Shown here piece by piece: positions 5,564 through 36,188 of a stretch of 64,000 nucleotides of DNA. The stretch covers positions 1,942-65,941 of the IMG/VR virus record IMGVR_UViG_3300047678_000069; one strand, written 5' to 3'. Position numbers and translations under genes: made by a program. The notes under the pieces are model-generated. The model saw only the letters and a list, made by a program, of their open reading frames with translations. It did not search any database and was not told the DNA's origin. Origin of the DNA: a virus. Taxonomy: Duplodnaviria > Caudoviricetes. Each line of letters starts with the position of its first letter. Within the stretch, counting starts at the first letter, position 1.

Positions 5564-5761
5564 TTAGAAGAACATACTCATGAAACTATACAGAGTCAAG
5601 ACAACTAATATTAGGTGTTGTAGAAATAGTCTGTATTCCAGTTCTCTGATCTTCTTAGTGTGTTCTAAGACCACGCGGCTGAGAGTTTCATGGGTTGATA
5701 GGCGGTTTGGGTTGTCCATTCTGGCTGACTCCATCAGTTTGTTTCGTTGTTCTGGGGTCAT
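5564..5761 (-). CDS. Hypothetical protein with a C-terminal TM segment
   Basis: 65 aa, hydrophobic C-terminus. Confidence 0.55.
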   Translation of the reverse strand: MTPEQRNKLMESARMDNPNRLSTHETLSRVVLEHTKKIRELEYRLFLQHLILVVLTLYSFMSMFF

Positions 5762-6003
5762 GTTTTCTTTCCTGAGGAAAGGCTCTGAGAACGGTGCATT
5801 TGAACTTGGTGTATCTGAAAAGGATTAGACGCCGTGATCTTAGATCTTGAAGTGTGGTGATAGAAGCGTTCCGTGAAAGCCCTTCAGGTTTTTGGTTCCA
5901 CCAGAACTTTCCAATGTGCAGGATTTTTCCTTCTGCAGATCTGACGACAGTAGCTTGAAGGACCATTCCCTTTTCAAGATGTTCCATTATCAGATGTTGG
6001 GAC

Positions 6004-6507
6004 TTACTTAGGGCTTTCTTCACCATCTGTGACAACCTTTTGGTTCTGGATTGGAATTGGGGTATAAAGTTCAACTCTGCCAGTCAAGCGGACGTAGGAA
6101 GTTTCAAGCCTTCCTCCAGGTCCTTCGACTGCGACCACTGCACCGTTTTTGTTACGTTCAAGAACGTCGATCCATCCAGTGTGGCCTGTGTAGCAGCGGG
6201 AGATTTCCTTGTATGAAACGTCTTTGTCGTTCAGTATGACTCGTGGAGCAGTTGAGCCGGAGAAGTTCACCAGAGGAAACATGTAGACGTCGGACGTGTA
6301 GTTTGTAGTCCAATCGTAGAGGTGGCCTGCAGGTCTTCTCAGTGAACTATGCGTGGAAGCTGCCTTAGCTTCGTGATACTCCTGCAGCATGTCTTCGATC
6401 TTGTGTAGATCGTTGATAGTGGACAACCCTTGCTCAACGCTTGCAACAAGGGATTTGACGTTGATCATTAGGTCACGGTCGAGGTTTGGATACGCTGGGT
6501 TCGTCAT
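6004..6507 (-). CDS. Hypothetical protein
   Basis: 167 aa ORF directly after the primase-helicase. Confidence 0.65.
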   Translation of the reverse strand: MTNPAYPNLDRDLMINVKSLVASVEQGLSTINDLHKIEDMLQEYHEAKAASTHSSLRRPAGHLYDWTTNYTSDVYMFPLVNFSGSTAPRVILNDKDVSYKEISRCYTGHTGWIDVLERNKNGAVVAVEGPGGRLETSYVRLTGRVELYTPIPIQNQKVVTDGEESPK

Positions 6508-6513
6508 GGTTTA

Positions 6514-8796
6514 TTATCCTTGAAATTCGTAAACTTGTTCCCACAAAATTCTCATGCGAGGGGTCAGTCTATAGGCTGGCACCCCTTTGATGCCACGGGC
6601 TTTCTTTCGGTCAAATACTTCAATGACGCCGATCTTTCTTAGGAATCGCAGAAGGTTTTTTACGTTATGCATTGAGTCTCCGATTAGTGTGGTGATAGAA
6701 CTTAGCACAAGACCGTCCTCGTCTGCAGCATACAATAGGCGGGCGATTTCAAGAGTTTGGCCCCTTGAAGTGTCGAGAGCTCTCTTGCGGGTTCTCTTGA
6801 AAACCTCTTTGTCGATTTTCTTCTTGTTCATCACAGCAGCGGTGCACACTGCATAACGAATAAGCTGTGAAGTCAGCCGTGAAGCGAACTCACGTTCAGC
6901 GATTTCCTTTTGCTTCTCAGAGGGTCTTGCTCTCATGAATGCTGTGAACTTGGCGAATCGGGTAATGCGGAACAGAACATCGTCAGGTAGATCAATCTGA
7001 CCAATCAGGTCGAAGGCGTTTGTTCTGAGATGTTCTATGTATCCACCAGTCAATTGCATTGCTGTCGTGAGGGTTGGTGATTGTGTTTGGCTACCACCAC
7101 CAGAACCCATTTCCATAGTCATAGTTGAAGCAACACGGCGGGCGACTCTGTTGAGGATTTCATCTTCAAGTTCATCTGGAACACCTTCCATGATGACACA
7201 GTCCAGGAAACGTTCTCCTAGTTCACTGCTGTCGATCATTCTGAGGGAAGACGTGCCGCATAGGATCACAGTTGTGGAAATGTTTTCGTAATCCTTGCTC
7301 ATCTCGTTCTTGTATTGTGTTCGAACTGAACGGTCATAGAATGCACGAAACTGTGAGAGGATCTGACCGATGGCAGGGTTTTGCAGAATGGTGTCTGCAT
7401 CCTTGATGACTAGAGTTTTGTCATCGAGGAGTTCTGCCATCGACATATTTTCACCACTGTTCTTTACTGATACGTAGCCAGAGAACAGACCGGTCATAGT
7501 GTCTTTAGGGAAGACATATTGACGGTTTGTGGAAATGGCTTCGCAGAGTGTAGTCTTTCCACAGGATGCAGGACCAATGATCTTGACCCACAATTGATCG
7601 CCAGCAACTTTCGTTGAGATGATGGAAGCTAACATTGTGGTCAGAGCATCTTCAAGCCCTTCAGTCCACTTCATTGCTCGACGCCATGCGTTGATCAGAT
7701 CTTTGAAGCGAGAACATGGTTCGCAGACGGTAACGCCGGTTCCACTACCATACGTTTTAGAGCCGCTGGCACCCCCTTTAAGCCACTCTGGCTCGGCGGG
7801 GTGTATTTGGTCGGCTAGTTCGGAGAAGGCGTTTATACGGGAAGCTAGGGCTTCTCCTGCCGCTACAAATACGTCCCGCAAGTCCATTCCGTCAGGTAGT
7901 GCTTCGCTGTATCCTTTCTCGCCCCACTTTAAATAGGAAATCGAGGCAGGTGGTCTTCCTGAGGAAGAGATGACACTGCAGATCGTAGCGATGCCAGACA
8001 GTGCAGCGGGTTGGATTATTTGACCAGTCTTTGGATGATTGCGAGGATGGTCATTGTCGAACATGAAGATGACGTCTTTGCCAGACAGCAGAGAACACCA
8101 GCTTTCATGAAAGACGTTGCAACCCGGCAAGGCGATGATGTTGGTGTCGTTCAGGAGACTGTGCAGTTCTGAGCCAGTCACGGTGAGGATACCTTCATCG
8201 GTCATCTTGGTTTGCTTCATCACTTCATAGAGAGCGATGGCATCCCACACACCTTCACAGATGATCACGCGGGGCTTGGATTTGTCCCACAGATTCATAC
8301 CGAAGATTTGGTGGTGAAATGATGGCTTTGGACCAGACAGTAGTCTCATTTTCCCGTTGATGTTGACATAACGGTAGAGATTTCTGAGAATGCTGTCTGT
8401 GCTGTAGGCTGGGACCAGCCATTCGCCTGAGATGATAGAACGGGTGACACCCCACAATTGTAGAACATCAGCGTCGAGAAATCCACGTTTTTCAGCAAGG
8501 GAGACAAGGGCCTTGGTATAGTTTTCACTGTCGTTCAGGCAATACTCATAAAGCTTGCGGATGAACACCATCGCGTTTCCACCACGGAAAGCTTTACCGT
8601 TGTCTTCACCTTCATTGCAAGCAACACATCTCCATTGACCAGTTTTCAAGAGGACAGAAAATTTTCCGGGTCGATCGCAGAAGGGGCAGGTTGTGGTTGC
8701 ATCCTTACTGTTTGGGTACTGACGAAAGTCTAATCCATGAAAGATATAGGGAGAAACAGTTTCCGAGATTTCGTCAGGTTTATCGATCAATGGCAC
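6514..8796 (-). CDS. DNA primase-helicase fusion
   Basis: N-terminal Zn finger CPFC...CVAC, TOPRIM ICEGVWD...FDND, C-terminal P-loop GPASCGKTT. Confidence 0.87.
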   Translation of the reverse strand: MPLIDKPDEISETVSPYIFHGLDFRQYPNSKDATTTCPFCDRPGKFSVLLKTGQWRCVACNEGEDNGKAFRGGNAMVFIRKLYEYCLNDSENYTKALVSLAEKRGFLDADVLQLWGVTRSIISGEWLVPAYSTDSILRNLYRYVNINGKMRLLSGPKPSFHHQIFGMNLWDKSKPRVIICEGVWDAIALYEVMKQTKMTDEGILTVTGSELHSLLNDTNIIALPGCNVFHESWCSLLSGKDVIFMFDNDHPRNHPKTGQIIQPAALSGIATICSVISSSGRPPASISYLKWGEKGYSEALPDGMDLRDVFVAAGEALASRINAFSELADQIHPAEPEWLKGGASGSKTYGSGTGVTVCEPCSRFKDLINAWRRAMKWTEGLEDALTTMLASIISTKVAGDQLWVKIIGPASCGKTTLCEAISTNRQYVFPKDTMTGLFSGYVSVKNSGENMSMAELLDDKTLVIKDADTILQNPAIGQILSQFRAFYDRSVRTQYKNEMSKDYENISTTVILCGTSSLRMIDSSELGERFLDCVIMEGVPDELEDEILNRVARRVASTMTMEMGSGGGSQTQSPTLTTAMQLTGGYIEHLRTNAFDLIGQIDLPDDVLFRITRFAKFTAFMRARPSEKQKEIAEREFASRLTSQLIRYAVCTAAVMNKKKIDKEVFKRTRKRALDTSRGQTLEIARLLYAADEDGLVLSSITTLIGDSMHNVKNLLRFLRKIGVIEVFDRKKARGIKGVPAYRLTPRMRILWEQVYEFQG

Positions 8797-20182: not shown

Positions 20183-20371
20183 TCAACCAGAAGTGGATTT
20201 TCTGCCGTGTTCTCTTTGGATTACTCTGTGGACTTCTTCACGATGCACAGCAATCTCTGGAGGGGCTTCAATCCCGAGGCGAACTCTGTCACCACGAATC
20301 TCGATGATCATTATTTTGATGTTATCGTTGATGATGATGGATTCGTCTTTCGATCGACTGAGAACTAACAT
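20183..20371 (-). CDS. csrA: Carbon storage regulator CsrA (RNA-binding translational regulator)
   Basis: MLVLSR...[17 protein letters not shown] canonical CsrA sequence; AGGAGA RBS. Confidence 0.95.
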
Positions 20372-26196: not shown

Positions 26197-26298
26197 GCGA
26201 TTTTCGGCGAATGGTAGGGTTGGTATTTTTCGAGCACAAAATCGTCGAGACGCAAAACACAATAAAAACACGGGTAAAGTAGTAAAAACTTTTCTGGG

Positions 26299-26327
26299 TT
26301 GCATTATGGTCGTTGGCTATTAATAAT
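26299..26327 (+). promoter_or_regulatory. Sigma70-like promoter TTGCAT-N17-AATAAT
   Basis: Near-consensus hexamers upstream of the ParB-like gene. Confidence 0.5.
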
Positions 26328-26390
26328 ACGTGTCAGCTTTGTTCGCTGTGGGCAAAGCAAAACAAGTTTTTAACCGGAGTGAGTTTAGTC

Positions 26391-27983
26391 ATGCCCAAGA
26401 TTACCAAAGAAGTTTCAGGAACGAAAGAAGTCAAGCCAGCAGCAAAGAAAGCTGCAAAGAAGGCTTCTGTTCCCGCCGAAACGAAGAAGGCCGCTGTTGT
26501 TGAAGCCCCTGCCAAGTCTGCTGGGAAGAAGGCTTCGAAGAAGAGCAAGGGTTCAGGGGAGATTGTTTATCCTGAACTTCGGGCTGAAGTGTACGGACCA
26601 GACAATCCGATCACTGTGGACTTGATGAAAGCGTGGTTAGGCTGGAAGGAATTGCCAGCGGATCATGAGGGCGAGTTTCTGCTGAAGGACGAAAACGGCA
26701 CAAAGGTCATTTGCTTGAACAATGCAAAGAATCGACCGTATTCAGCTTCCCTCAGCAGTTTGTATGCTCAGGAGATTCTGCGGGGACACTGGAAACTGAA
26801 CGGCGAAACCATGATCTTCGGTAATTATGGTCAAGCCATCGCAGTTCAGCACCGTGGCATCGGGTTGATTCTGGCATGGCAGAAGTGGGCCAATGACAAA
26901 GCTGCATATCCCTATTGGAAGTCGGCACCAACAATTCAGTCCTTTGTTGCGTTCGGCATTTCGGAGGATGATGAAACTGTCAACACGATTGACACTGGCA
27001 AGCCGAGAACTTTCAGCGACGCAGTGTACCGTTCGTCGTTGTTTGAGAACCTGTCTGGTTCAGCGAAGAAGAATGCCTGCAGGATTCTTGACTTTGCCGT
27101 CAGGTGCGTTTGGAACAGAACGGGTCGTGGGGTTGTTTCCTATGCACCACGAAGAACCCACAGCGAGGCATTTGAATTCGTGAATGCTCACGAGACACTG
27201 TTGAAGTGTGTTAGGCACATCATGGAAGAAAATGACGAGAACCGTGTTGGACGATTTATTCCACCGGGGACCGCTGCGGGTTTGATGTACATGATGGCTT
27301 GCAGCACAACCGATCGAACGGAATACGCTGCAGCAGAAAGTCCGACTGAGAACTATCTCAACTTTGAGAACTACGACAAAGCTGAAGCGTTCTGGGTTGG
27401 CCTTGCAAGTGGATCGAAGTTGTTCGCTCCGCTGAAAGCTGCAATTTCCAAGATGATTGAAGACTCGTTCGGTGGAAGCCCGATCGAACGTATCTCGTTG
27501 ATTGTGTTGGCGTGGACCAGCTTCCTGAACCATGGAAAGGTTCTTGAGAAAGATCTCAAGCTGGAATATCACACGGACGAAGAAACGGGTGCCACTATGC
27601 TGATGGAATGTCCTTCGGTTGGCGGGATTGACCTTGGCAACCCTGCAGAACATGAAGACGCTCAGGAAGCAACCCCGGAGGAAATGGAATCTACGAAGAA
27701 CAAGATCAAACAGGAAAAGGCTTCCAAGGGCAAGGTGGCGAAAGGTTCAAAGCAAAAGCCAGACATGAAGAACGTAGTCTACCTGACACCGGCAGATCTC
27801 AAGGTTGGTGACAAGGTTTGGGTTGGTACGTCAAGCAGTGACGAGAACAAGTGGATGGGGATCTACCGTAGTCATTACAAACTTGCGGCTGGCCCCATTG
27901 CCAAGATCGAAGCATGTGAAGGATATGCTGGGGCTGGCAAGTTGTTTGATGCATCGTTTGAATCTTTGTACGTGATTGAATAG
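26391..27983 (+). CDS. ParB/Srx-like protein with a basic N-terminal arm
   Basis: NRPYS...YAQEILRGHWKLNGETMIF...AVQHRG resembles the ParB-like DGQHRL family; also TIDTGKPRT. Confidence 0.7.
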   Translation: MPKITKEVSGTKEVKPAAKKAAKKASVPAETKKAAVVEAPAKSAGKKASKKSKGSGEIVYPELRAEVYGPDNPITVDLMKAWLGWKELPADHEGEFLLKDENGTKVICLNNAKNRPYSASLSSLYAQEILRGHWKLNGETMIFGNYGQAIAVQHRGIGLILAWQKWANDKAAYPYWKSAPTIQSFVAFGISEDDETVNTIDTGKPRTFSDAVYRSSLFENLSGSAKKNACRILDFAVRCVWNRTGRGVVSYAPRRTHSEAFEFVNAHETLLKCVRHIMEENDENRVGRFIPPGTAAGLMYMMACSTTDRTEYAAAESPTENYLNFENYDKAEAFWVGLASGSKLFAPLKAAISKMIEDSFGGSPIERISLIVLAWTSFLNHGKVLEKDLKLEYHTDEETGATMLMECPSVGGIDLGNPAEHEDAQEATPEEMESTKNKIKQEKASKGKVAKGSKQKPDMKNVVYLTPADLKVGDKVWVGTSSSDENKWMGIYRSHYKLAAGPIAKIEACEGYAGAGKLFDASFESLYVIE

Positions 27984-28271
27984 GTCTGACCTTTTCACCA
28001 GTTTGTAAACTCTGGTTCCCCTGTCGGTTGTTGTTGCTTGTTGGACAGCGATCGGCAGGGGTTTTTTGTTTTTTGTTGGCAGGGTTGGCAGGGGGGTTGG
28101 TTTTGCTTGTGGGGGTTGGTTGTTTGTGGGCAGGGGAAACAATGGGTTGGCGATTGTGGGGGCTTGTGGGGCTTGTGTGGAGCTTGTGGGCAGTAAAAAC
28201 GCTGGTTTTATTGGGCTTTTGCTTGTCGGCAAAAAACTTTTGGAAAAATGGTCAAATGGTTGTTGTGGGAC

Positions 28272-28302
28272 TTTACTTCGACGACGATTTCGACGACTAT
28301 TC
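28272..28302 (+). promoter_or_regulatory. Putative class B promoter (TTTACT-N17-GAYYAT)
   Basis: Aligns to 11598-11628; heads the plus-strand operon. Confidence 0.55.
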
Positions 28303-28511
28303 TTTCTGCAGGACGCACATTGTTGCGAACTGTAAACGATCTTTGAAAACACAGACAGGGTAAGGCTGATCGGGAAACTGGTCACTACGCTGTAGAATCA
28401 AGAACGGGTAAAACCCGTGAATCCGGCTCCTAACCAGAGAACCATCACACAGATGATGTGGAAGCCGATCGACAGGAAAGCTGATTTGCTACCAGTGGAC
28501 CTGAGACGATG

Positions 28512-28564
28512 AAGCGTAGCATGGTGTGTACCATGCCTGATGATTCGAAAACGATGAAACGCTT
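28512..28564 (+). ncRNA. Type III hammerhead ribozyme
   Basis: AAGC-GUA^ / stem I GCAUGGU-GUGU-ACCAUGC / CUGAUGA / stem II U-UCG-AAAA-CGA-U / GAAA-CGCUU; stem III AAGCGU:ACGCUU is perfectly paired. Confidence 0.88.
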
Positions 28565-28573
28565 TTAGAGGAC

Positions 28574-28855
28574 ATGACAATGACTATTGAAACCGAAGTT
28601 TACTTGATGAGCCAGTTCCGTGTAGAACCGAACATGGTTCAAGTTTGTGTTGAAGAAGGGTACTACTATACTCAACGTGGCTTTGTGATTCAAGGGTTGT
28701 CTGAAGGGGTTCACTGCTATGAATTCCAGCGGGTGTTCCAGACCGAACAGTTGGCTCTTGACAAGGTTGATCAACTCGAACGACTGGTTAATGCGACCAA
28801 GGTTGATGGACTGAAAGTTACCGAGGACTGGAATTACATCGGGTCGTCAACATAG
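28574..28855 (+). CDS. Hypothetical early protein
   Basis: GAGGA RBS directly after the ribozyme. Confidence 0.7.
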   Translation: MTMTIETEVYLMSQFRVEPNMVQVCVEEGYYYTQRGFVIQGLSEGVHCYEFQRVFQTEQLALDKVDQLERLVNATKVDGLKVTEDWNYIGSST

Positions 28856-28871
28856 TGCTGACCGTGTTCAA

Positions 28872-28905
28872 GGGGGGTGACCATCGTGGTCGCTCCCTTC
28901 TTCTT
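28872..28905 (+). terminator. Terminator-like hairpin with a CAUCGUG cap
   Basis: GGGGGTGACCA-TCG-TGGTCGCTCCC followed by a pyrimidine tract. Confidence 0.55.
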
Positions 28906-28927
28906 CAATAGAAGTGAGGATGTTCCA

Positions 28928-29344
28928 ATGTTGAGTTTAGAATTCGTACTGGCTGGTCGAGCAGTGTTCACCGTCAACAATGACAAGGGCGACCACTACA
29001 CTTTCAAGGTGGTCAAGAAGGAAACGGCTTCAATGGGGCCGATCTGGTTTGCAATGCTGCTGACTGGTCCTGACAATACAAATGACTACACCTACATGGG
29101 GTGCATTGATGCTCAGCTTGGTTTCAGACTTACCGGCAAGTCAAAGTTCAAGATGGACAGTGTTCCGGTCAAGGTACTGGTCTGGACCCTTCGACATGTT
29201 TTCATGATGCTGGAACTTCCGGCTGGTTACAAGATCCACCATGAAGGAAAGTGTGGTCGCTGTGGTCGAGCTTTGACTGTACCTAGTTCTGTGGAAAGTG
29301 GGATTGGTCCTGAGTGTGCCAAAATCATGATGGGAGTATGCTGA
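28928..29344 (+). CDS. DUF6011-like Zn-ribbon protein
   Basis: CGRCGRALTVPSSVESGIGPECA. Confidence 0.8.
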   Translation: MLSLEFVLAGRAVFTVNNDKGDHYTFKVVKKETASMGPIWFAMLLTGPDNTNDYTYMGCIDAQLGFRLTGKSKFKMDSVPVKVLVWTLRHVFMMLELPAGYKIHHEGKCGRCGRALTVPSSVESGIGPECAKIMMGVC

Positions 29345-29676
29345 TGAAGACTAAAACCGCCGTTCAATGCTGTTCATGTCACAGGGCAACAGCCGAAATG
29401 GAAATTGGGTCAAACCAAGTATGCTGGAATTGCTGGAAAGCCTTGAAGCAATACAGCATATGCTCAATCTGCCGAAAGGTGTTGAGCAAAACGCTAGCAG
29501 ACCTTGCATTCAAACGTCATACTGTTTCCTGTTGTAGTCGAAAAGCCTGCAAGATTGAAGCAGATGTTGCGGTTGGTCTGCTGTGCTGTAACAAAGCAAA
29601 GAAGATCAATTGTGTTTGTGTTCGGGCTTACAAGTGTCCTGTTCATGGTGAGTTCCATGTTGGGTCGCACGATTAG
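29344..29676 (+). CDS. Cys-rich hypothetical protein
   Basis: Multiple CxxC motifs; coupled to the upstream stop. Confidence 0.6.
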   Translation: MKTKTAVQCCSCHRATAEMEIGSNQVCWNCWKALKQYSICSICRKVLSKTLADLAFKRHTVSCCSRKACKIEADVAVGLLCCNKAKKINCVCVRAYKCPVHGEFHVGSHD

Positions 29677-29733
29677 TTGTTGGGTTATAGTTGTGTGAGT
29701 TTGTTCTTTTCCTTACTTGAAAGTGAGTTTACG

Positions 29734-30918
29734 ATGGCTGCGGTTATTGCTGATATTGCTGCTGAGATTGTTACGTTCCTTCAGCAAAATGAAACTGAAT
29801 GGTTCACTGAAGAACAAGTATATCAACAATTGCGTCACTTGGTTGGCGATCGAAAAGGTGACTACCATGTGACCTATCCTTTGAGAGCCTTGGTTGGGGC
29901 TGGTGTGCTGAAGGGGACTGTTCGAAATGGCAAGGTGGTCAAGTGTTCCTTCAAATCTGCCACAGACAGTTCAGGGGTTGAAACGGTTCCCAAAGCTGAC
30001 ATGATGAAGCTTGTTTCAACTGTTCGAAGCCAGTTCGAAAAGCAAGTGACCGACCTGACCGAAAAGGTTGGAACCCTGACCGCCGAAGTTGCCAAACGCC
30101 AGTCAGCAACACGGGTTGCTCGGATCGACGTTTACCGTGGCAAGACCCTTGAACGAAAGATTGAAGGGATCTTTCATGCAACGTTTGAAGAGATTCTGGA
30201 TCTGGGAAATGCCCGTGAACCGATCTTTGCATACGGTCCCGGCGGATCTGGCAAGTCGACCATTGGTGAACAGCTTGCCGAAGCTTTGGGGTTATCGTTC
30301 CACATGATTTCCTGCTCTTCAGGGATGACTGAGGGTCAGGTGTTGGGTCGGTTGCTTCCAGTGGGGACCAACGGCAAGTTTGAATTCGTTGGTACAGAAT
30401 TCCTCAACGCCTTTGAAAACGGTGGGGTGTTTCTGGCTGATGAGATTGACGCTGCTGACCCTAACACCTTGCTGATCTGGAATTCAGCTTTGGCGAATGG
30501 CAGGATCAGTCTGCCTAATCGGCCAAAGAAACCGATGGCAGTGATGCATGAAGATTTCGTGTTCATTGCTGCAGCGAACACCCTTGGCGGTGGGGCTGAC
30601 CGGATGTATTCTGGACGCAACAAATTGGACGGGGCGTTCATGGACCGTTTTTGCTGCAGCAAGGTTATGATTGGTTATGATCCGAACCTTGAAGAACAAG
30701 TCTGTCCTGATGTAGAACTCAGAACAAGGCTTCTGGCTTACAGAGCCAACCTTGAAGCCAACCGGCTTGAGCGAATCATCAGCACTAGGTTCATGGCGAA
30801 AGCCTACAAAGCCAAACAGCGTGGGTGGTCAGACGAGAAGATTGATGAAACCCTGTTTCGGGGATGGCGTGAAAACGAAATCAATCTGGTCAAGCAAGGT
30901 GTTCGAAAGTCCTTCTGA
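29734..30918 (+). CDS. MoxR/CobS-like AAA+ ATPase
   Basis: GPGGSGKS, FLADEIDAA, IAAANT, LDGAFMDRF. Confidence 0.9.
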   Translation: MAAVIADIAAEIVTFLQQNETEWFTEEQVYQQLRHLVGDRKGDYHVTYPLRALVGAGVLKGTVRNGKVVKCSFKSATDSSGVETVPKADMMKLVSTVRSQFEKQVTDLTEKVGTLTAEVAKRQSATRVARIDVYRGKTLERKIEGIFHATFEEILDLGNAREPIFAYGPGGSGKSTIGEQLAEALGLSFHMISCSSGMTEGQVLGRLLPVGTNGKFEFVGTEFLNAFENGGVFLADEIDAADPNTLLIWNSALANGRISLPNRPKKPMAVMHEDFVFIAAANTLGGGADRMYSGRNKLDGAFMDRFCCSKVMIGYDPNLEEQVCPDVELRTRLLAYRANLEANRLERIISTRFMAKAYKAKQRGWSDEKIDETLFRGWRENEINLVKQGVRKSF

Positions 30919-30968
30919 AAGTGGTGTTGTGTTTGTGAGTGTGTTTTCTTTAATCCTAGTTCTGGAGA

Positions 30969-31829
30969 ATGATCATGAGTATCAAAAGCAATGCCCTGAA
31001 AATCACAACCCGTTCCGGCCACGAGATCTTCCGGTTCGAATCTGTTGCAGCGATGGATGGTTATGTTGACAAGACCATTCGTGGGCCAGAATTCTTCACA
31101 ACAAATCCTAGTTTCACTGGACGGGAATTCAATAGTTGGGAACAGCTTCAAGAAGCCTTGAACAAAGCGTGGGAAGAGGGTATCGAAATTGTTGAAGCGT
31201 TTGTGACACGTCTCCGGAAGCTTGAATGGCCTGAGATCAAGGAAGTAAAGGCTCGCAAGGTTTACAGCACAGAAGGTGACGAAGTTGATTTCGATCGGCT
31301 TCATGCTGGTGTTCCAGAATTCTTCACGAAGATCGAACGTGAAAAGACTGGACCAGCAACTGTGACCGTGGTGATTGATAACACCACTGCAGGATACATG
31401 GATTCGGAGGACATTCTGTGGCGTGGGGCTGCTGCTCTGGCGTTCACTGCTCTGCTGGAAGAAAAGGGGTATGGCGTTGAATTGTGGGTCACTAATGGCT
31501 CAAGACTCTACGCTTACCATCCAGACCGTGGTGTCATGACAGCAACGTGCCTGAAGCGTGCTGGTGATCCACTCGACATGAGCACCTTGACCTCAGTGGT
31601 CAGTGGTTGGTTCTACAGGACGGAAACGTTTCAGCTTCTGCACACAATCTGTGACCACCAACAGAAGGTCATGACTTCTGCGTACGGGAGGGTTCATTCC
31701 CCAACGTCAGAAGATCTTGACATGTTCACGGGTGATCAGAAACGGGTTTATGTTTCTGGGGTGTTCAGTTTCAGCGGTGCAGCAGACCTGATCGGTGATG
31801 AACTGAAAAGGATCTCAGTCGAAGATTAG
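30969..31829 (+). CDS. Partner of the MoxR ATPase (CobT/vWA-like, degenerate)
   Basis: Follows the MoxR gene; GDEVDFDR then VTVVIDNTTA MIDAS-like strand. Confidence 0.65.
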   Translation: MIMSIKSNALKITTRSGHEIFRFESVAAMDGYVDKTIRGPEFFTTNPSFTGREFNSWEQLQEALNKAWEEGIEIVEAFVTRLRKLEWPEIKEVKARKVYSTEGDEVDFDRLHAGVPEFFTKIEREKTGPATVTVVIDNTTAGYMDSEDILWRGAAALAFTALLEEKGYGVELWVTNGSRLYAYHPDRGVMTATCLKRAGDPLDMSTLTSVVSGWFYRTETFQLLHTICDHQQKVMTSAYGRVHSPTSEDLDMFTGDQKRVYVSGVFSFSGAADLIGDELKRISVED

Positions 31830-31917
31830 TTCCGGAGTTCGGGGTAGGGCACCACGTTGATGCCCTACCTTATGGACGAACATGAAAAGACCTACGGCGG
31901 TTGAGCGATTATTCGAT

Positions 31918-31950
31918 TGGGGCAGGCATCGTGTTTGCCCCTTTCTTTTT
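31918..31950 (+). terminator. Terminator-like hairpin with a CAUCGUG cap
   Basis: GGGGCAGGCA-TCG-TGTTTGCCCC followed by TTTCTTTTT. Confidence 0.65.
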
Positions 31951-31968
31951 ACACCTTATTTGGAGTTT

Positions 31969-32277
31969 ATGATGATCTACCGAGGCTACAAAATTGAACC
32001 CTTCCCAAACAGCTACCCTTTCCCGTTTTCGTATGTTCATACAGGCTACGATGGACCGGAAGACGACCGGCATGGGATTGAGGATACTGTTCAGGAATGT
32101 AAGGATGCAATTGATGATTGGTACGACGACCAGTTGTTCTGTGAACATTGCGATTCAACTGGCATCGTGCATGTTCCGAATCGACCCTACCCAAACGATC
32201 CGCGAAGCATTGAAGAAACGTTTTCTGAAGAATGTGAAAAGTGTTCCAAGGTCCACAGTCAATTGTTAAACCAATAG
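31969..32277 (+). CDS. Hypothetical protein with CxxC pairs
   Basis: GGAG RBS; CEHC...CEKC. Confidence 0.65.
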   Translation: MMIYRGYKIEPFPNSYPFPFSYVHTGYDGPEDDRHGIEDTVQECKDAIDDWYDDQLFCEHCDSTGIVHVPNRPYPNDPRSIEETFSEECEKCSKVHSQLLNQ

Positions 32278-32292
32278 CAGGAATTTTTAACG

Positions 32293-32487
32293 ATGGTCAT
32301 GGAAGCAGAAGTCCCCACAAGTGTTCGTTTACGTCGTGCAGGATTCGATAAGTGTGGCTATAATCCTCGAGAACGAAAATGGAAAGTTGGGTGTACCAAG
32401 TGCAAGGCACTGGTCATCAATGGAGTGCCATGCCATGAATTAAATTGTTCAAACTTTGTTAAGGCAAAAAACCGTGGGTTCAAATAA
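32293..32487 (+). CDS. Small Zn-binding hypothetical protein
   Basis: CTKC...INGVPCHELNC. Confidence 0.65.
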   Translation: MVMEAEVPTSVRLRRAGFDKCGYNPRERKWKVGCTKCKALVINGVPCHELNCSNFVKAKNRGFK

Positions 32488-32704
32488 GGAACTACTGACA
32501 ACTGGACAAGCTGCGACCGTGATTGGCTGCAGTATCCAACATGTAAGAACTTTGATCAACAGAAAGAAATTGCTGGCGACTTCTGTGAAAACTGTGAACG
32601 GAAGTTCAACAGGGATGGAATGGCGGATTTCAATGGATGAAGCCAAAAGGTACAGAGCCTACCAACCAAAGAAAGGATGGAAGCGTGGTCAGAAACGAAA
32701 GTGA
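32456..32704 (+). CDS. Excisionase-like HTH DNA-binding protein
   Basis: LLTTGQAATVIGCSIQHVRTLI...WRI; start codon uncertain. Confidence 0.75.
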   Translation: MLRQKTVGSNKELLTTGQAATVIGCSIQHVRTLINRKKLLATSVKTVNGSSTGMEWRISMDEAKRYRAYQPKKGWKRGQKRK

Positions 32705-32880
32705 TAAGTGGCAATCAAATGCAGAATGGAACCCGTGTTACGAGTTTGAAAACAACGTGACAACGGACACACACCAAACTAAAGAACAGGCTGAAGCTGT
32801 GTGTCGTGGGTTGATGCGTGAAGGATTGGGTTGTGGGCGTATCCACTTCCCTGTGAGAGTTTGGGTGTCTGTAAAAGAAA

Positions 32881-34506
32881 GTGAGCAAGATCATGCCGAA
32901 AGTTGATTCACCCCTCAAGGCTTTGGGGAAACAGTTGAAGGAAAGCCGAAAGAAACTTCCACCGAATGTTATTGTCAGGGCTGGTGCAGGTTGTGGTAAG
33001 ACAACAACACTGGTTGAAGGAATGAAGATGATGCGTGGCATCGAAACATTGATCACCCCTTCAGCACAACAGAAAGCTGTGTGGGATCAGATGATGTTGT
33101 CAAAGGATGCGTATTCGGTTTGCTTCACTTCGTTTGGTAAGGAACCAGCGGTGCAGATGGGTAAGAAGATTCCAGCGGGTTGCGAATCTATGACTCTGCA
33201 TCAGATGGGATCGAGGATGGTGCGGAAAGCTTTTCCAATGGCTAAGCTTGACAAGAAAGGGGAAAAGGACAGCTTGATCATTGGCAAGGTTCTGAACGTG
33301 GACATCTACAGGTTCAAGAATTCGAAGTTCATGGAATACCAATCCCTAATGGACGCGATCGAGAAGTGCAAGCTAACATTGATTGACGGCACCGAACCAA
33401 TGCAAGTTGAGGACATGCTAAACCACTTTGACATTGTCGAGGGGCGGGATCTTATCTTCAAGCACATTGAAGAGATTCTTGAACTGTCAATGGACATCAA
33501 GACAACCGGGATGTACACGTTTCCCGATATGATCTGGATCCCGATCGTTCAGAAACTTCCAATTTTCAAGTTCGACCTATTGCTGGTCGACGAATTCCAA
33601 GACCTGAACCGTTGCCAGCAAGAATTGGCTTTGTTGGCTGGTCACAGGATCATAGGTGTTGGTGATGAGAATCAGTCAATCTTTGCGTTTGCTGGTGCAG
33701 ACCAAGATTCGATGAAACGGCTTGAGAACCGTCTTCGCAATACGCCGAATGGGGTTGAAGTTTTGTTCTTGAACGAAACTCGAAGATGCGCAAAAGCCAT
33801 TGTCAGGGAAGCCCAAAAAACTGTTCCAGATTTCTTTGCCCACGAAAGCAATCCTGAGGGAGAGGTCCTGTACGATCAGCTTGAAGATACGGAATTCGGT
33901 GATTCTTACAGGAAGCGAGTTGAGGACGGCGATATGGTTCTGTGCCGCTATAATGCACCGCTTGTTTCTCAGTGTTTTAAGTTCTTGAAGGGGAAACGCA
34001 AGGCACAGATTCGTGGTCGTGAAATTGGTGGCAGCTTGATCAGGATAATCTTCAGGGCACTCAGGTATCGTGGGGACATACCGGACTTCACGAACAGTTC
34101 CAGGTTCAGTGATGATGTGTCATTGGTGGATCTTGAGTCAGGGCTTCAGGAATGGCTGGCATCAGAAGTTTCGAAAGAGCGATCCAAGAAGTTTGTTGAC
34201 GAAACCAAGATCAACGGAAAGATCGATTGCTGTGAATGCATCAAAGTGTTCTGCAGCGATTCAAAGTCAGCGGCTGAAGTGGTTGTCAGGATCAATCAAG
34301 TGTTCACTGACACAACTTGTGAAGGGATCATGCTGAGTTCGATCCATAAAGCCAAAGGCCTTGAATGCAAGACCGTTTGGCTTCTTCAGCCACAGTCAAA
34401 TTCAAAGTATCGAAAGCCCGCTCCAAAATGGCAGAGCAAACAGGAGACCAACCTTGAGCATGTTGGTATCACAAGGGCAATGAATAAACTGGTTTATGTT
34501 CACTAG
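32881..34506 (+). CDS. UvrD/Rep superfamily 1 helicase
   Basis: AGAGCGKTT, VDEFQD, VGDENQSIFAF, SIHKAKGLE, VGITRA. Confidence 0.93.
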   Translation: MSKIMPKVDSPLKALGKQLKESRKKLPPNVIVRAGAGCGKTTTLVEGMKMMRGIETLITPSAQQKAVWDQMMLSKDAYSVCFTSFGKEPAVQMGKKIPAGCESMTLHQMGSRMVRKAFPMAKLDKKGEKDSLIIGKVLNVDIYRFKNSKFMEYQSLMDAIEKCKLTLIDGTEPMQVEDMLNHFDIVEGRDLIFKHIEEILELSMDIKTTGMYTFPDMIWIPIVQKLPIFKFDLLLVDEFQDLNRCQQELALLAGHRIIGVGDENQSIFAFAGADQDSMKRLENRLRNTPNGVEVLFLNETRRCAKAIVREAQKTVPDFFAHESNPEGEVLYDQLEDTEFGDSYRKRVEDGDMVLCRYNAPLVSQCFKFLKGKRKAQIRGREIGGSLIRIIFRALRYRGDIPDFTNSSRFSDDVSLVDLESGLQEWLASEVSKERSKKFVDETKINGKIDCCECIKVFCSDSKSAAEVVVRINQVFTDTTCEGIMLSSIHKAKGLECKTVWLLQPQSNSKYRKPAPKWQSKQETNLEHVGITRAMNKLVYVH

Positions 34507-34968
34507 GTGTTTCTTGAAAGGATGTTGATCATGCAAAGGATTGCGAAGTTGTTGTTCTGGCTGAGTGTATTGGTGACCGTATGTTGCGGTTGCCGTTGGT
34601 GTGGAACCGATTACCAAGGAACTGAAATCATGAAGGAAATGTTGCCAGTTGAACACAAGCCAAGAAATCACAAGCCAAAAGCTTCTGAGCGTATTGACTT
34701 TACGGTTGAAGATGAGCGAGGGTTCCGCGAACGATTTGAGTGTGCGTCGGTTGAAGAGTTTTCGAACAGGGTGTTCAAGTATTGTCTTGGAGTGTGGAAA
34801 GCCAAGACAGCACGATACCGAAATGTTCTGGCAACTGAACTGACCGTCATTCTGGATGCGAACTTTCGCATGGGACGTACGAACTTTGCGTTTGAGCATG
34901 GTGGACTCAAGTTTCTTCCAACAGCTTATTATTTGAAAGGAGGTCAGGCTGCAACGTATAACAGTTGA
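34507..34968 (+). CDS. Hypothetical protein (start uncertain)
   Basis: ORF track. Confidence 0.5.
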   Translation: MFLERMLIMQRIAKLLFWLSVLVTVCCGCRWCGTDYQGTEIMKEMLPVEHKPRNHKPKASERIDFTVEDERGFRERFECASVEEFSNRVFKYCLGVWKAKTARYRNVLATELTVILDANFRMGRTNFAFEHGGLKFLPTAYYLKGGQAATYNS

Positions 34969-35059
34969 AAAGAATTGTTGTACAATGATCGGGCATTTTG
35001 GTTGTAAGGTTCACAACCCAATTTGATGTTCAGGTTGGGTTTCTTTTCCAGTTATTTGT

Positions 35060-35659
<600 letters not shown>

Positions 35660-35781
35660 AACTTGATGGGCTGACTTTTCTCTGGTTGGTCAGACCATAA
35701 ATTTGCACGGCGATCTGAAGGGGAAACCTTTTGGGTCGCCGTGCATTTTCGTTTGTAGGGTTGAACGGTTTGCAGGGTTAC

Positions 35782-35872
35782 TTGTTGGTTGTTACTTGTT
35801 GGTTGTTGGTTGTTGGTTGTTGGTTGTTGGTTGTTGGTTGTTGGTTGTTGGTTGTTGGTTGTTGGTTGTTGG
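35782..35872. repeat. (TTGTTGG)x13 tandem heptamer repeat, one unit variant
   Basis: Read directly; in the convergent intergenic region. Confidence 0.95.
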
Positions 35873-36188
35873 TTGCTGCGGGATTCTTGCGTGGGCTTGC
35901 AGGGTGGTTGTGTGGCTCTTGGTTGGTTGTTGGGCAGGGTTTTATTGGGCTTTTGGCTAGGGGGCGTTTGTGGGGCAAAATTGGGGCTTTTGCGATGGCT
36001 CTGGCAGGGCTTTGCAGGGGCTTTAAGCGTGGGGGGCTCTAGGGTCGGTTGGGTTTCGAAAAGCGACGCGTCTGTGGGCTTGTGGGGGGCCTTAAAACGC
36101 AAAATCGCAAGGGGTTTAGGTGGGCAGAGTTTGGGTAGGGTTTACTGTACAGTCGTATAGTATCAGATTTTGGTGGGTGTACCAACGA

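Follow-up and report, generated by a model that had tools for sequence, protein, structure and literature searches.

A candidate boxA antitermination leader ending at a probable hammerhead ribozyme ahead of an operon of an uncultured phage

Results

The stretch of DNA analysed here (the window) consists of 64,000 nt of a viral record from IMG/VR (IMGVR_UViG_3300047678_000069; Duplodnaviria, Caudoviricetes), that is, the 65.9-kb record (CheckV completeness 92%) minus its first 1.9 kb. Genes lie on the minus strand up to position 26260 and again from about 35656, and between them a plus-strand module (26313-35659) encodes a 556-aa protein, a 91-93-aa open reading frame (ORF), a DUF6011 protein, a MoxR/CobS-like AAA_5 ATPase, a DUF7192 protein and a UvrD-type helicase. 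A gap of 590 nt separates the 556-aa gene from the small ORF and is the site of the leader, which a sequence-only reading had placed at 28308-28518 and described as a structured small RNA with a 3' end set by a ribozyme.

The 556-aa protein upstream of the gap (26313-27983, plus strand) belongs to PHROG 5931, of unknown function, and matches no family in Pfam or NCBIfam. It carries an N/D-G-Q-H-R block that is invariant in 42 aligned homologues and that we take to resemble a ParB/DGQHR-type motif. The protein has approximately 78 homologues, almost all on phage-like contigs of 60-75 kb; among genome contigs the sole full-length match is on a 73.8-kb contig binned with a Dehalococcoidia MAG, and the rest are short ParB-like fragments. 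The best homologue among 5.8 billion proteins is 43% identical in local and 44% in global alignment.

An intrinsic terminator found by a terminator scan (28018-28061, plus strand) closes the 556-aa gene with an 18-bp stem followed by a T run. It folds at -31.1 kcal/mol (z -8.0), a value equalled by none of 200 shuffles, and given that the upstream gene is closed so strongly, the leader needs a promoter of its own. Between this terminator and the promoter-like element described below lie GT-rich direct repeats (28062-28230) with GGCAGGG and CTTGTGGG words, which fall into seven direct-repeat families; GGCAGGGK is found nine times in the window against 2.0 expected, and four of the nine copies are within these repeats. 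A second GT-rich array (35750-36110) is located on the other side of the plus-strand module and includes about 14 tandem TTGGTTG units (35790-35875). Both arrays sit directly after strong terminators (28018-28061 and 35704-35745), and they may be protein-binding sites.

On the other side of the gap, the first operon gene (28567-28855 including its Shine-Dalgarno sequence, plus strand) is preceded by AGAGGA at 28567-28572 and starts at ATG 28574, or at 28580 with better spacing. Its 91-93-aa product has no family in Pfam, PHROGs or NCBIfam. Two terminator-like hairpins are found within the operon, at 28866-28898 and 31919-31941. The first of these, which separates the small ORF from the DUF6011 gene, is a 13-bp hairpin followed by UUCUUCUUC; the region around it (28850-28930) folds at -28.8 kcal/mol (z -2.6), and it is possibly an attenuating terminator inside the operon.

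The putative promoter assigned earlier to the leader is borne out in part. A -35-like TTTACT (28272) and a -10-like TATTCT (28298) are present on the plus strand (element 28272-28303), but the 20-nt spacer between them is over-long and contains a 12-nt tandem duplication (28277-28300), and a sigma-70 promoter scan returned no plus-strand promoter in the leader region. Hence the 5' end is uncertain; the predicted start of transcription is near A28310. The first transcribed bases can form a 5'-terminal hairpin (28308-28333, plus strand), with CGCA-loop-UGCG inside GCAG/CUGU, at -10.1 kcal/mol (61% of the ensemble, z -1.83).

This hairpin holds a boxB-like position directly before ACGAUCUUUGAAAAC (28336-28350, plus strand), which we regard as a candidate rrn-type boxA and a candidate loading site for NusB-S10. 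Bases 28336-28348 agree with the B. subtilis rrn consensus AUGAUCUUUGAAA at 12 of 13 positions. As described in the accessible text of a 2026 mBio report (PMC13753749), B. subtilis rrn operons start with a small hairpin followed immediately by a boxA-like sequence of consensus AUGAUCUUUGAAA, B. subtilis NusB binds that boxA RNA by NMR, and the E. coli boxA consensus is UGCUCUUUAACA. Compared with GYTCTTTAANA, a gamma-proteobacterial consensus given in the accessible part of PMC5725501 that may not be that of the host, the window motif matches at 9 of 11 positions, with A replacing Y and G replacing A. The exact boxA 11-mer occurs a single time in the window, on the same strand as the operon, and is unpaired in the centroid fold. 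MFE folds offered a pairing of boxA with the stem III strand of the hammerhead (below) or with the Shine-Dalgarno sequence, which we rejected as weak (seven pairs, including two G.U, across a loop of 220 nt). No boxC-like element was recognised in the leader.

The rest of the leader is a variable body (28351-28510, plus strand) with hairpins at 28367-28384, 28404-28418, 28424-28467 and 28468-28510. All three hairpins that had been read in the sequence earlier are found on the plus strand within 28308-28518, namely GATCGG-GAAA-CTGGTC (28368-28383), ACGGGT-AAA-ACCCGT (28404-28418) and CGGCTCC...GGAAGCCG enclosing CACA...TGTG (about 28425-28467). The absence of a credible plus-strand ORF is likewise upheld, with frames of 31-32 aa and a 111-aa TTG frame through the GT-rich repeats as the only ones present; minus-strand frames over the stretch are 184 aa and 60 aa long, and frames on both strands have no Pfam or NCBIfam match at E <0.1. 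The minimum free energy of 28308-28518 is -59.7 kcal/mol, at z -2.68 with 1 of 200 shuffles as good, or z -1.96 with a separate set of 100 shuffles. The description as a structured leader therefore stands as far as the hairpins and a fold at z -2.0 to -2.7 go, but 11% of 45 random 211-nt tiles of the window also reach z -2 or lower (mean z -0.61, sd 1.25). Taken together, hairpins, GGA triplets and fold exceed chance weakly. Of the sequencing runs listed as containing 28000-29400, two are DNA runs that may be the source of the contig, and none is an RNA run.

Related loci were collected from IMG/VR as 77 loci (72 distinct), each with a 27-41% identical homologue of the 556-aa protein. No close relative of the leader was found among GenBank phages by blastn, in IMG/VR by the 93-aa, 556-aa and AAA_5 proteins singly, or in JGI metagenomes by the 556-aa protein, and a DNA pattern of stem I and the core of the hammerhead had 0 matches. 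The upstream regions of the DUF6011 neighbours in L003-L005 are unrelated, with no ribozyme match at E up to 0.1. Searched against the 77 loci with blastn-short, the leader gives a 16-nt match of boxA to L009 (E 0.045) and everything else at E >=0.7; the body (28351-28510) has no match below E 2.8. Compared with Rfam, the body matches no family, apart from one chance-level C/D-box hit (E 0.056). A duplex scan of leader against operon, looking for leader-trailer pairing, was swamped by promiscuous GU-rich repeats near 35,900.

Side by side, the leaders of the relatives have one common word behind their promoters, TCTTTGA-N-AAC. On the plus strand up to 800 nt past the homologous upstream gene, TCTTT[GA]ANA is present in 13 of the 72 distinct loci, compared with about 1.6 expected from a background of 34 matches in 1.21 Mb (the rest of the loci, both strands), which amounts to an enrichment of about eight-fold at this single position and strand; L053 has a one-base variant that falls outside this count. 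The boxA-like word is found 180-320 nt past the homologous gene in 11 of the 72, and the corresponding distance in the window is 357 nt. A TTGAACGGC extension common to approximately seven relatives is missing from the window. Promoter-like elements consisting of a -35 TTTACT, a 16-17-nt spacer and a TATAAT-like -10 stand 8-38 nt before boxA in 5 of 11 relatives examined and match 11-12 of 12 positions. In L009, L015 and L069 the interval from the -10 to boxA contains hairpins (-12.6 to -14.7 kcal/mol), and in L013 a weak one. While the surroundings diverge, boxA holds its place between promoter and leader body.

Given that the spacing between promoter and boxA is variable and the word is strictly confined to one strand, an RNA signal fits better than a DNA operator. 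This bears on a reading in which the stretch is mainly a DNA element (an origin, partition site or operator array) connected with the GT-rich repeats and with the ParB-like-looking 556-aa protein, the hairpins being by-products. The GT-rich arrays do flank the plus-strand module, but the upstream repeats end at about 28230, short of the leader, and boxA and hammerhead are strand-specific RNA signals supported by the relatives, so that we consider a DNA element very unlikely.

At its 3' end the leader enters a candidate type III hammerhead ribozyme (28511-28565, plus strand) with a predicted cut between A28518 and G28519. At gathering thresholds Rfam reports nothing in the window; a permissive Rfam scan of 1 kb matches the element to RF00008 at 33.4 bits (E 4e-5; E 6.2e-7 for the whole record), about 15 bits under the gathering threshold of 48.5. 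In the Rfam alignment the core is intact, with CUGAUGA at 28537-28543, GAAAC at 28556-28560 and a GUA triplet that precedes the predicted cut following A28518. Stem I (7-8 bp, loop GUGU) and stem III (7 bp, open) are long and perfect. Stem II consists of a U.U mismatch and three Watson-Crick pairs under an AAAA loop; the mismatch sits at the base of the stem, a position occupied by a G-C pair in the relatives and in the Rfam consensus. The hammerhead forms in the MFE fold of the whole leader plus ribozyme.

Hammerheads are also found at this place in the relatives. RF00008 matches at E <=0.01 in 3 of 76 related records (75 with a 556-aa homologue, 3 with a DUF6011 homologue, 2 with both), none above threshold and all downstream of the homologous gene. 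A descriptor scan, for which control patterns gave one or two stray matches each in 1.4 Mb, finds canonical type III hammerheads at the equivalent spot in L013, L022 (identical to L023), L025 and L027, and a further copy in L015, in whose core U...A replaces the C...G pair of the other relatives. The succession of boxA, type III hammerhead and first gene is thus seen in L013, L015, L022, L025 and L027, i.e. 5 of 12 distinct boxA-bearing relatives, and the order boxA, ribozyme, Shine-Dalgarno sequence is kept in every case seen.

Aligned (A4), the hammerheads of these five relatives have 10 of 16 pairs changed on both sides with 98.8% of cells paired, a count that includes a pseudoknot between loops I and II; 0 of 500 shuffles are as good and no slid register comes near it. 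Judged by their sequences, the ribozymes of the relatives appear to be real. They have a 2-bp stem II, and loops I and II pair as a covarying 4-bp pseudoknot, GGUA/UACC, which in L013 is CGCA/UGCG, i.e. two pairs changed on both sides. The loops of the window, GUGU and AAAA, are unable to form it. A covariance model built from the five relatives only (R1; L013, L022, L025, L027 and L015) and thus trained without the window recovers the window element at 28510-28566 with 23 bits (E 0.019; search space 698,100 bases, both strands). The window element accordingly looks like a divergent, pseudoknot-less member of the ribozyme lineage that occupies this position.

R1 also found additional copies in L011, L009, L053 and L014, the look-alike in L009 scoring 42.5 bits. 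Several syntenic hammerheads have altered cores (L015:5847-5902, L009:5679-5738 and L053:5933-5988). C3 and G8 pair in the active hammerhead ribozyme. In L015, which has UUGAAAA in place of CUGAUGA, both are jointly changed, to U and A, and this could be a natural compensatory pair; the core of L009 has an extra U, and that of L053 reads UUGAAGA. Several hammerheads of differing topology are present in the early operons of relatives, and only one in the window. These include tandem type III plus type II hammerheads in L027 (5846-5962) and sites in L013 at 5715-5764, about 6023-6069 and about 6951-7014, with a type II hammerhead above threshold (42.7 bits) in the L013 record. Further sites are L019:6605-6674 and L038:5735-5792, the latter type I-like by eye. 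Permuted hammerheads proposed by eye in L012 and L069 have no Rfam report at E up to 1 or 0.1 and are not counted.

The earlier claim of a ribozyme at the end of the leader is hence supported by the core, the GUA triplet and the match to R1, but weakened by the sub-threshold Rfam score, the weak stem II and the missing pseudoknot. The accessible part of Perreault et al. 2011 (PMC3088659) describes tertiary contacts as critical for the speed of hammerheads at physiological magnesium, and hammerheads without tertiary loop contacts as losing activity at physiological Mg. One alternative is a boxA leader without cleavage, in which the hammerhead has decayed and is inactive and the mRNA retains the leader as a long 5' UTR. 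The score below the Rfam threshold, the U.U in place of the basal G-C of stem II with only three further pairs, the window's want of a pseudoknot or evident loop-loop contact, and the altered cores at the same place in L009, L015 and L053 all point that way. However, the invariant core bases and the NUH triplet are all intact, both stem I and stem III are long and fully paired, the hammerhead is the MFE fold in the context of the whole leader, and a fully preserved core is unexpected in a dead copy. We consider it fairly unlikely that the copy is dead, and rate self-cleavage by the window hammerhead, as predicted from these features, at somewhat better than an even chance.

A second alternative keeps the cleavage and drops the antitermination. 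The stretch would be an ordinary 5' UTR with a boxA-like word of no Nus function, the hammerhead would trim the mRNA to a 5'-OH, and the hairpins would be incidental. There is good documentation of gene-flanking hammerheads in prophage transcripts (accessible text of PMC3088659), and trimming to a 5'-OH beside the ribosome-binding site is the usual proposal for phage hammerheads. The relatives have several type I-III hammerheads in the same operon that are not each preceded by boxA, the boxA word is absent from 59 of 72 relatives, and in L011 a syntenic hammerhead stands behind an A-rich leader without boxA. Set against this are the roughly eight-fold enrichment of the boxA word at one position and strand, its constant place between promoter and body amid divergence, and the 12/13 match to an experimentally bound boxA in the same hairpin-then-boxA layout (accessible text of PMC13753749). 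An ordinary UTR is in our view unlikely, although it deserves to be taken seriously.

The sequence-only reading had favoured a discrete early small RNA of about 210 nt and, more speculatively, a CsrA sponge. The phage does encode CsrA (PF02599, 77 bits, about 20216-20371 on the minus strand, in a 76-aa open frame), and the leader contains exactly five GGA triplets, as stated. The further statement that five is slightly above chance does not hold, given that shuffles average 4.9 (mononucleotide) or 5.5 (dinucleotide) and 58-75% of them have at least as many. The densest 150 nt of the leader hold 4 GGA, compared with 10-12 in the richest 150-nt stretches of the window, and just one leader GGA is in a hairpin loop. 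No CsrB/Rsm family is found at gathering threshold in the window, nor at E up to 10 in 27900-28900 (Rfam). With GGA at chance, one of them in a hairpin loop, and no CsrB/Rsm match, the CsrA-sponge role fails every test applied. The leader is like CsrB, RsmY and RsmZ in that it is small and non-coding and that its genome also has a gene for CsrA, and unlike them in its chance-level GGA content, which is not displayed in loops, in having no Rfam match and in lacking a terminator of its own.

As to a discrete RNA in general, the stretch is non-coding and ends at a probable hammerhead, but its body aligns with no relative. A dedicated, conserved small RNA is contradicted by the absence of the body from all 77 loci and by a boxA-to-cut length of 80 to 446 nt in the relatives, a five-fold range (L027 80, L013 280, L025 373 and L022 446 nt; window 178 nt). 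A purpose-made, stable, trans-acting early RNA of about 210 nt with a ribozyme-set 3' end, for example a CsrA sponge, is in line with the encoded CsrA, with a 5' hairpin and a cyclic-phosphate 3' end that would both favour stability, with a leader fold somewhat more stable than shuffles, and with a weak PrrB/RsmZ-like match in the related locus L073. Yet the GGA count, the lack of a match to CsrB/Rsm or any other small RNA family, and the unconserved body of variable length all speak against it, and we regard it as very unlikely. The L073 match (8542-8667, minus strand), at 25 bits against a threshold of 44 (E 0.097), could be due to chance or could mark a CsrA-binding RNA of this phage family.

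Discussion

The conserved parts of the leader appear to be its two ends: it opens with hairpin and boxA, and it closes with a hammerhead that adjoins the ribosome-binding site. On the basis of these motifs, the order in which they stand, how far relatives keep them and how the ribozymes of the relatives covary, we propose that the stretch is a Nus-factor antitermination leader of a phage early/replication operon that is removed by ribozyme cleavage, an interpretation to which we give about an even chance of being right. We infer the binding of Nus factors, the antitermination, the self-cleavage and what becomes of the fragment.

In the proposed sequence of events, transcription would start near 28310, and the nascent RNA would form the small 5' hairpin first and then expose the rrn-type boxA. 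Host NusB-S10 with NusA, NusG and other factors would assemble on boxA and render RNA polymerase termination-resistant, and the modified polymerase would pass approximately 210 nt of untranslated, Rho-exposed leader as well as the terminator-like hairpins at 28866-28898 and 31919-31941. The type III hammerhead, a few bases ahead of the ribosome-binding site, would cut between A28518 and G28519 to give a boxA leader of about 209 nt (5'-triphosphate and 2',3'-cyclic phosphate) and an mRNA that opens with a 5'-OH and the hairpin of stem I. The released 5' fragment would be a processing product, possibly still held by the polymerase, and no dedicated trans-acting small RNA. With boxA directly behind the 5' hairpin, the fragment resembles a cut-off antitermination leader rather than a purpose-made small RNA. 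For this window, the '210-nt sRNA' is hence most likely a leader fragment, and the link to CsrA is unfounded.

By analogy, the layout can be read as the grammar of an rRNA operon with a ribozyme in place of the RNase III site. As in the rrn leaders of B. subtilis and E. coli, a small 5' hairpin or boxB is followed immediately by boxA at the head of a long transcription unit, and as in those leaders, where the complex consists of NusB-S10-NusA-NusG-SuhB, the leader would later be removed by endonucleolytic processing, which in the phage is predicted. In contrast to rrn leaders, the phage leader heads protein-coding genes, has no recognised boxC, owes its Nus binding to prediction from sequence, and would be removed by a self-cleaving ribozyme, whereas RNase III acts at a leader-trailer helix in rrn. 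The nutL and nutR sites of lambda combine boxA with boxB and the N protein (accessible text of PMC2800207 and PMC2724277). As in lambda, the Nus-factor loading word of the window would lie in the first transcribed bases of an early operon; unlike lambda nut, no N-like protein or boxB-N pairing is evident, and processing would be by a hammerhead. The window boxA is moreover of the B. subtilis type, unlike the E. coli type of the phage boxA precedents.

The ribozyme shares with type III hammerheads of RF00008 its core, NUH site, three-helix junction and open stem III, and with the gene-flanking hammerheads of prophages, as covered in the accessible text of Perreault et al. 2011 (PMC3088659), a site between cistrons or leaders within a phage operon. 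It differs from typical RF00008 members in its sub-threshold score and weak stem II with a basal U.U, from the copies in its relatives in its missing pseudoknot, and from known hammerheads in that it ends a boxA leader. Phage boxA sites and phage hammerheads are each already known, but we did not find the pairing in print; a full-text literature search (boxA, hammerhead and antitermination) turned up no natural boxA leader with a ribozyme at its end, the hammerhead in the accessible part of PMC10250234 being an engineered tool.

What hammerheads do in bacteria and phages has yet to be settled, and boxA beyond rRNA operons is only starting to be catalogued. The order promoter, hairpin, boxA, variable leader, hammerhead and ribosome-binding site in uncultured phages of approximately 60-75 kb suggests a link between processive antitermination and ribozyme processing, and the ribozyme may take over in a phage operon the task that RNase III performs behind boxA in rRNA operons. 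The locus also bears on whether an antitermination complex outlives the cutting of its RNA tether. As stated in the accessible text of a preprint (bioRxiv 10.64898/2026.03.17.712431), the rrn antitermination complex needs polymerase and boxBAC RNA and bridges RNA ends by looping; given this looped complex, seen in single-molecule work, the effect of a ribozyme that cuts the loop is a question of interest. A bolder version, which we think quite unlikely, would have the cleaved boxA leader persist as a free RNP, either an untethered, portable antitermination RNA that NusB-S10 clamps to the polymerase and that serves the entire early operon, or a decoy that draws Nus factors from host rRNA. If it were true, the ribozyme cut would be a switch for how long, and for whom, antitermination lasts.

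The proposed boxA leader cut by a hammerhead gives no reason for the 160 nt of idiosyncratic, moderately structured RNA between boxA and ribozyme. Some relatives have internal leader blocks in common that are absent from the window. A block around GGTACAA(A/C)GCCCGG that lies between complementary G/C-rich arms is shared by the leaders of L012, L015, L019, L061 and L069, about 40-110 nt past boxA in four of them and about 215 nt past it in L019, and is a candidate conserved leader hairpin of these relatives.
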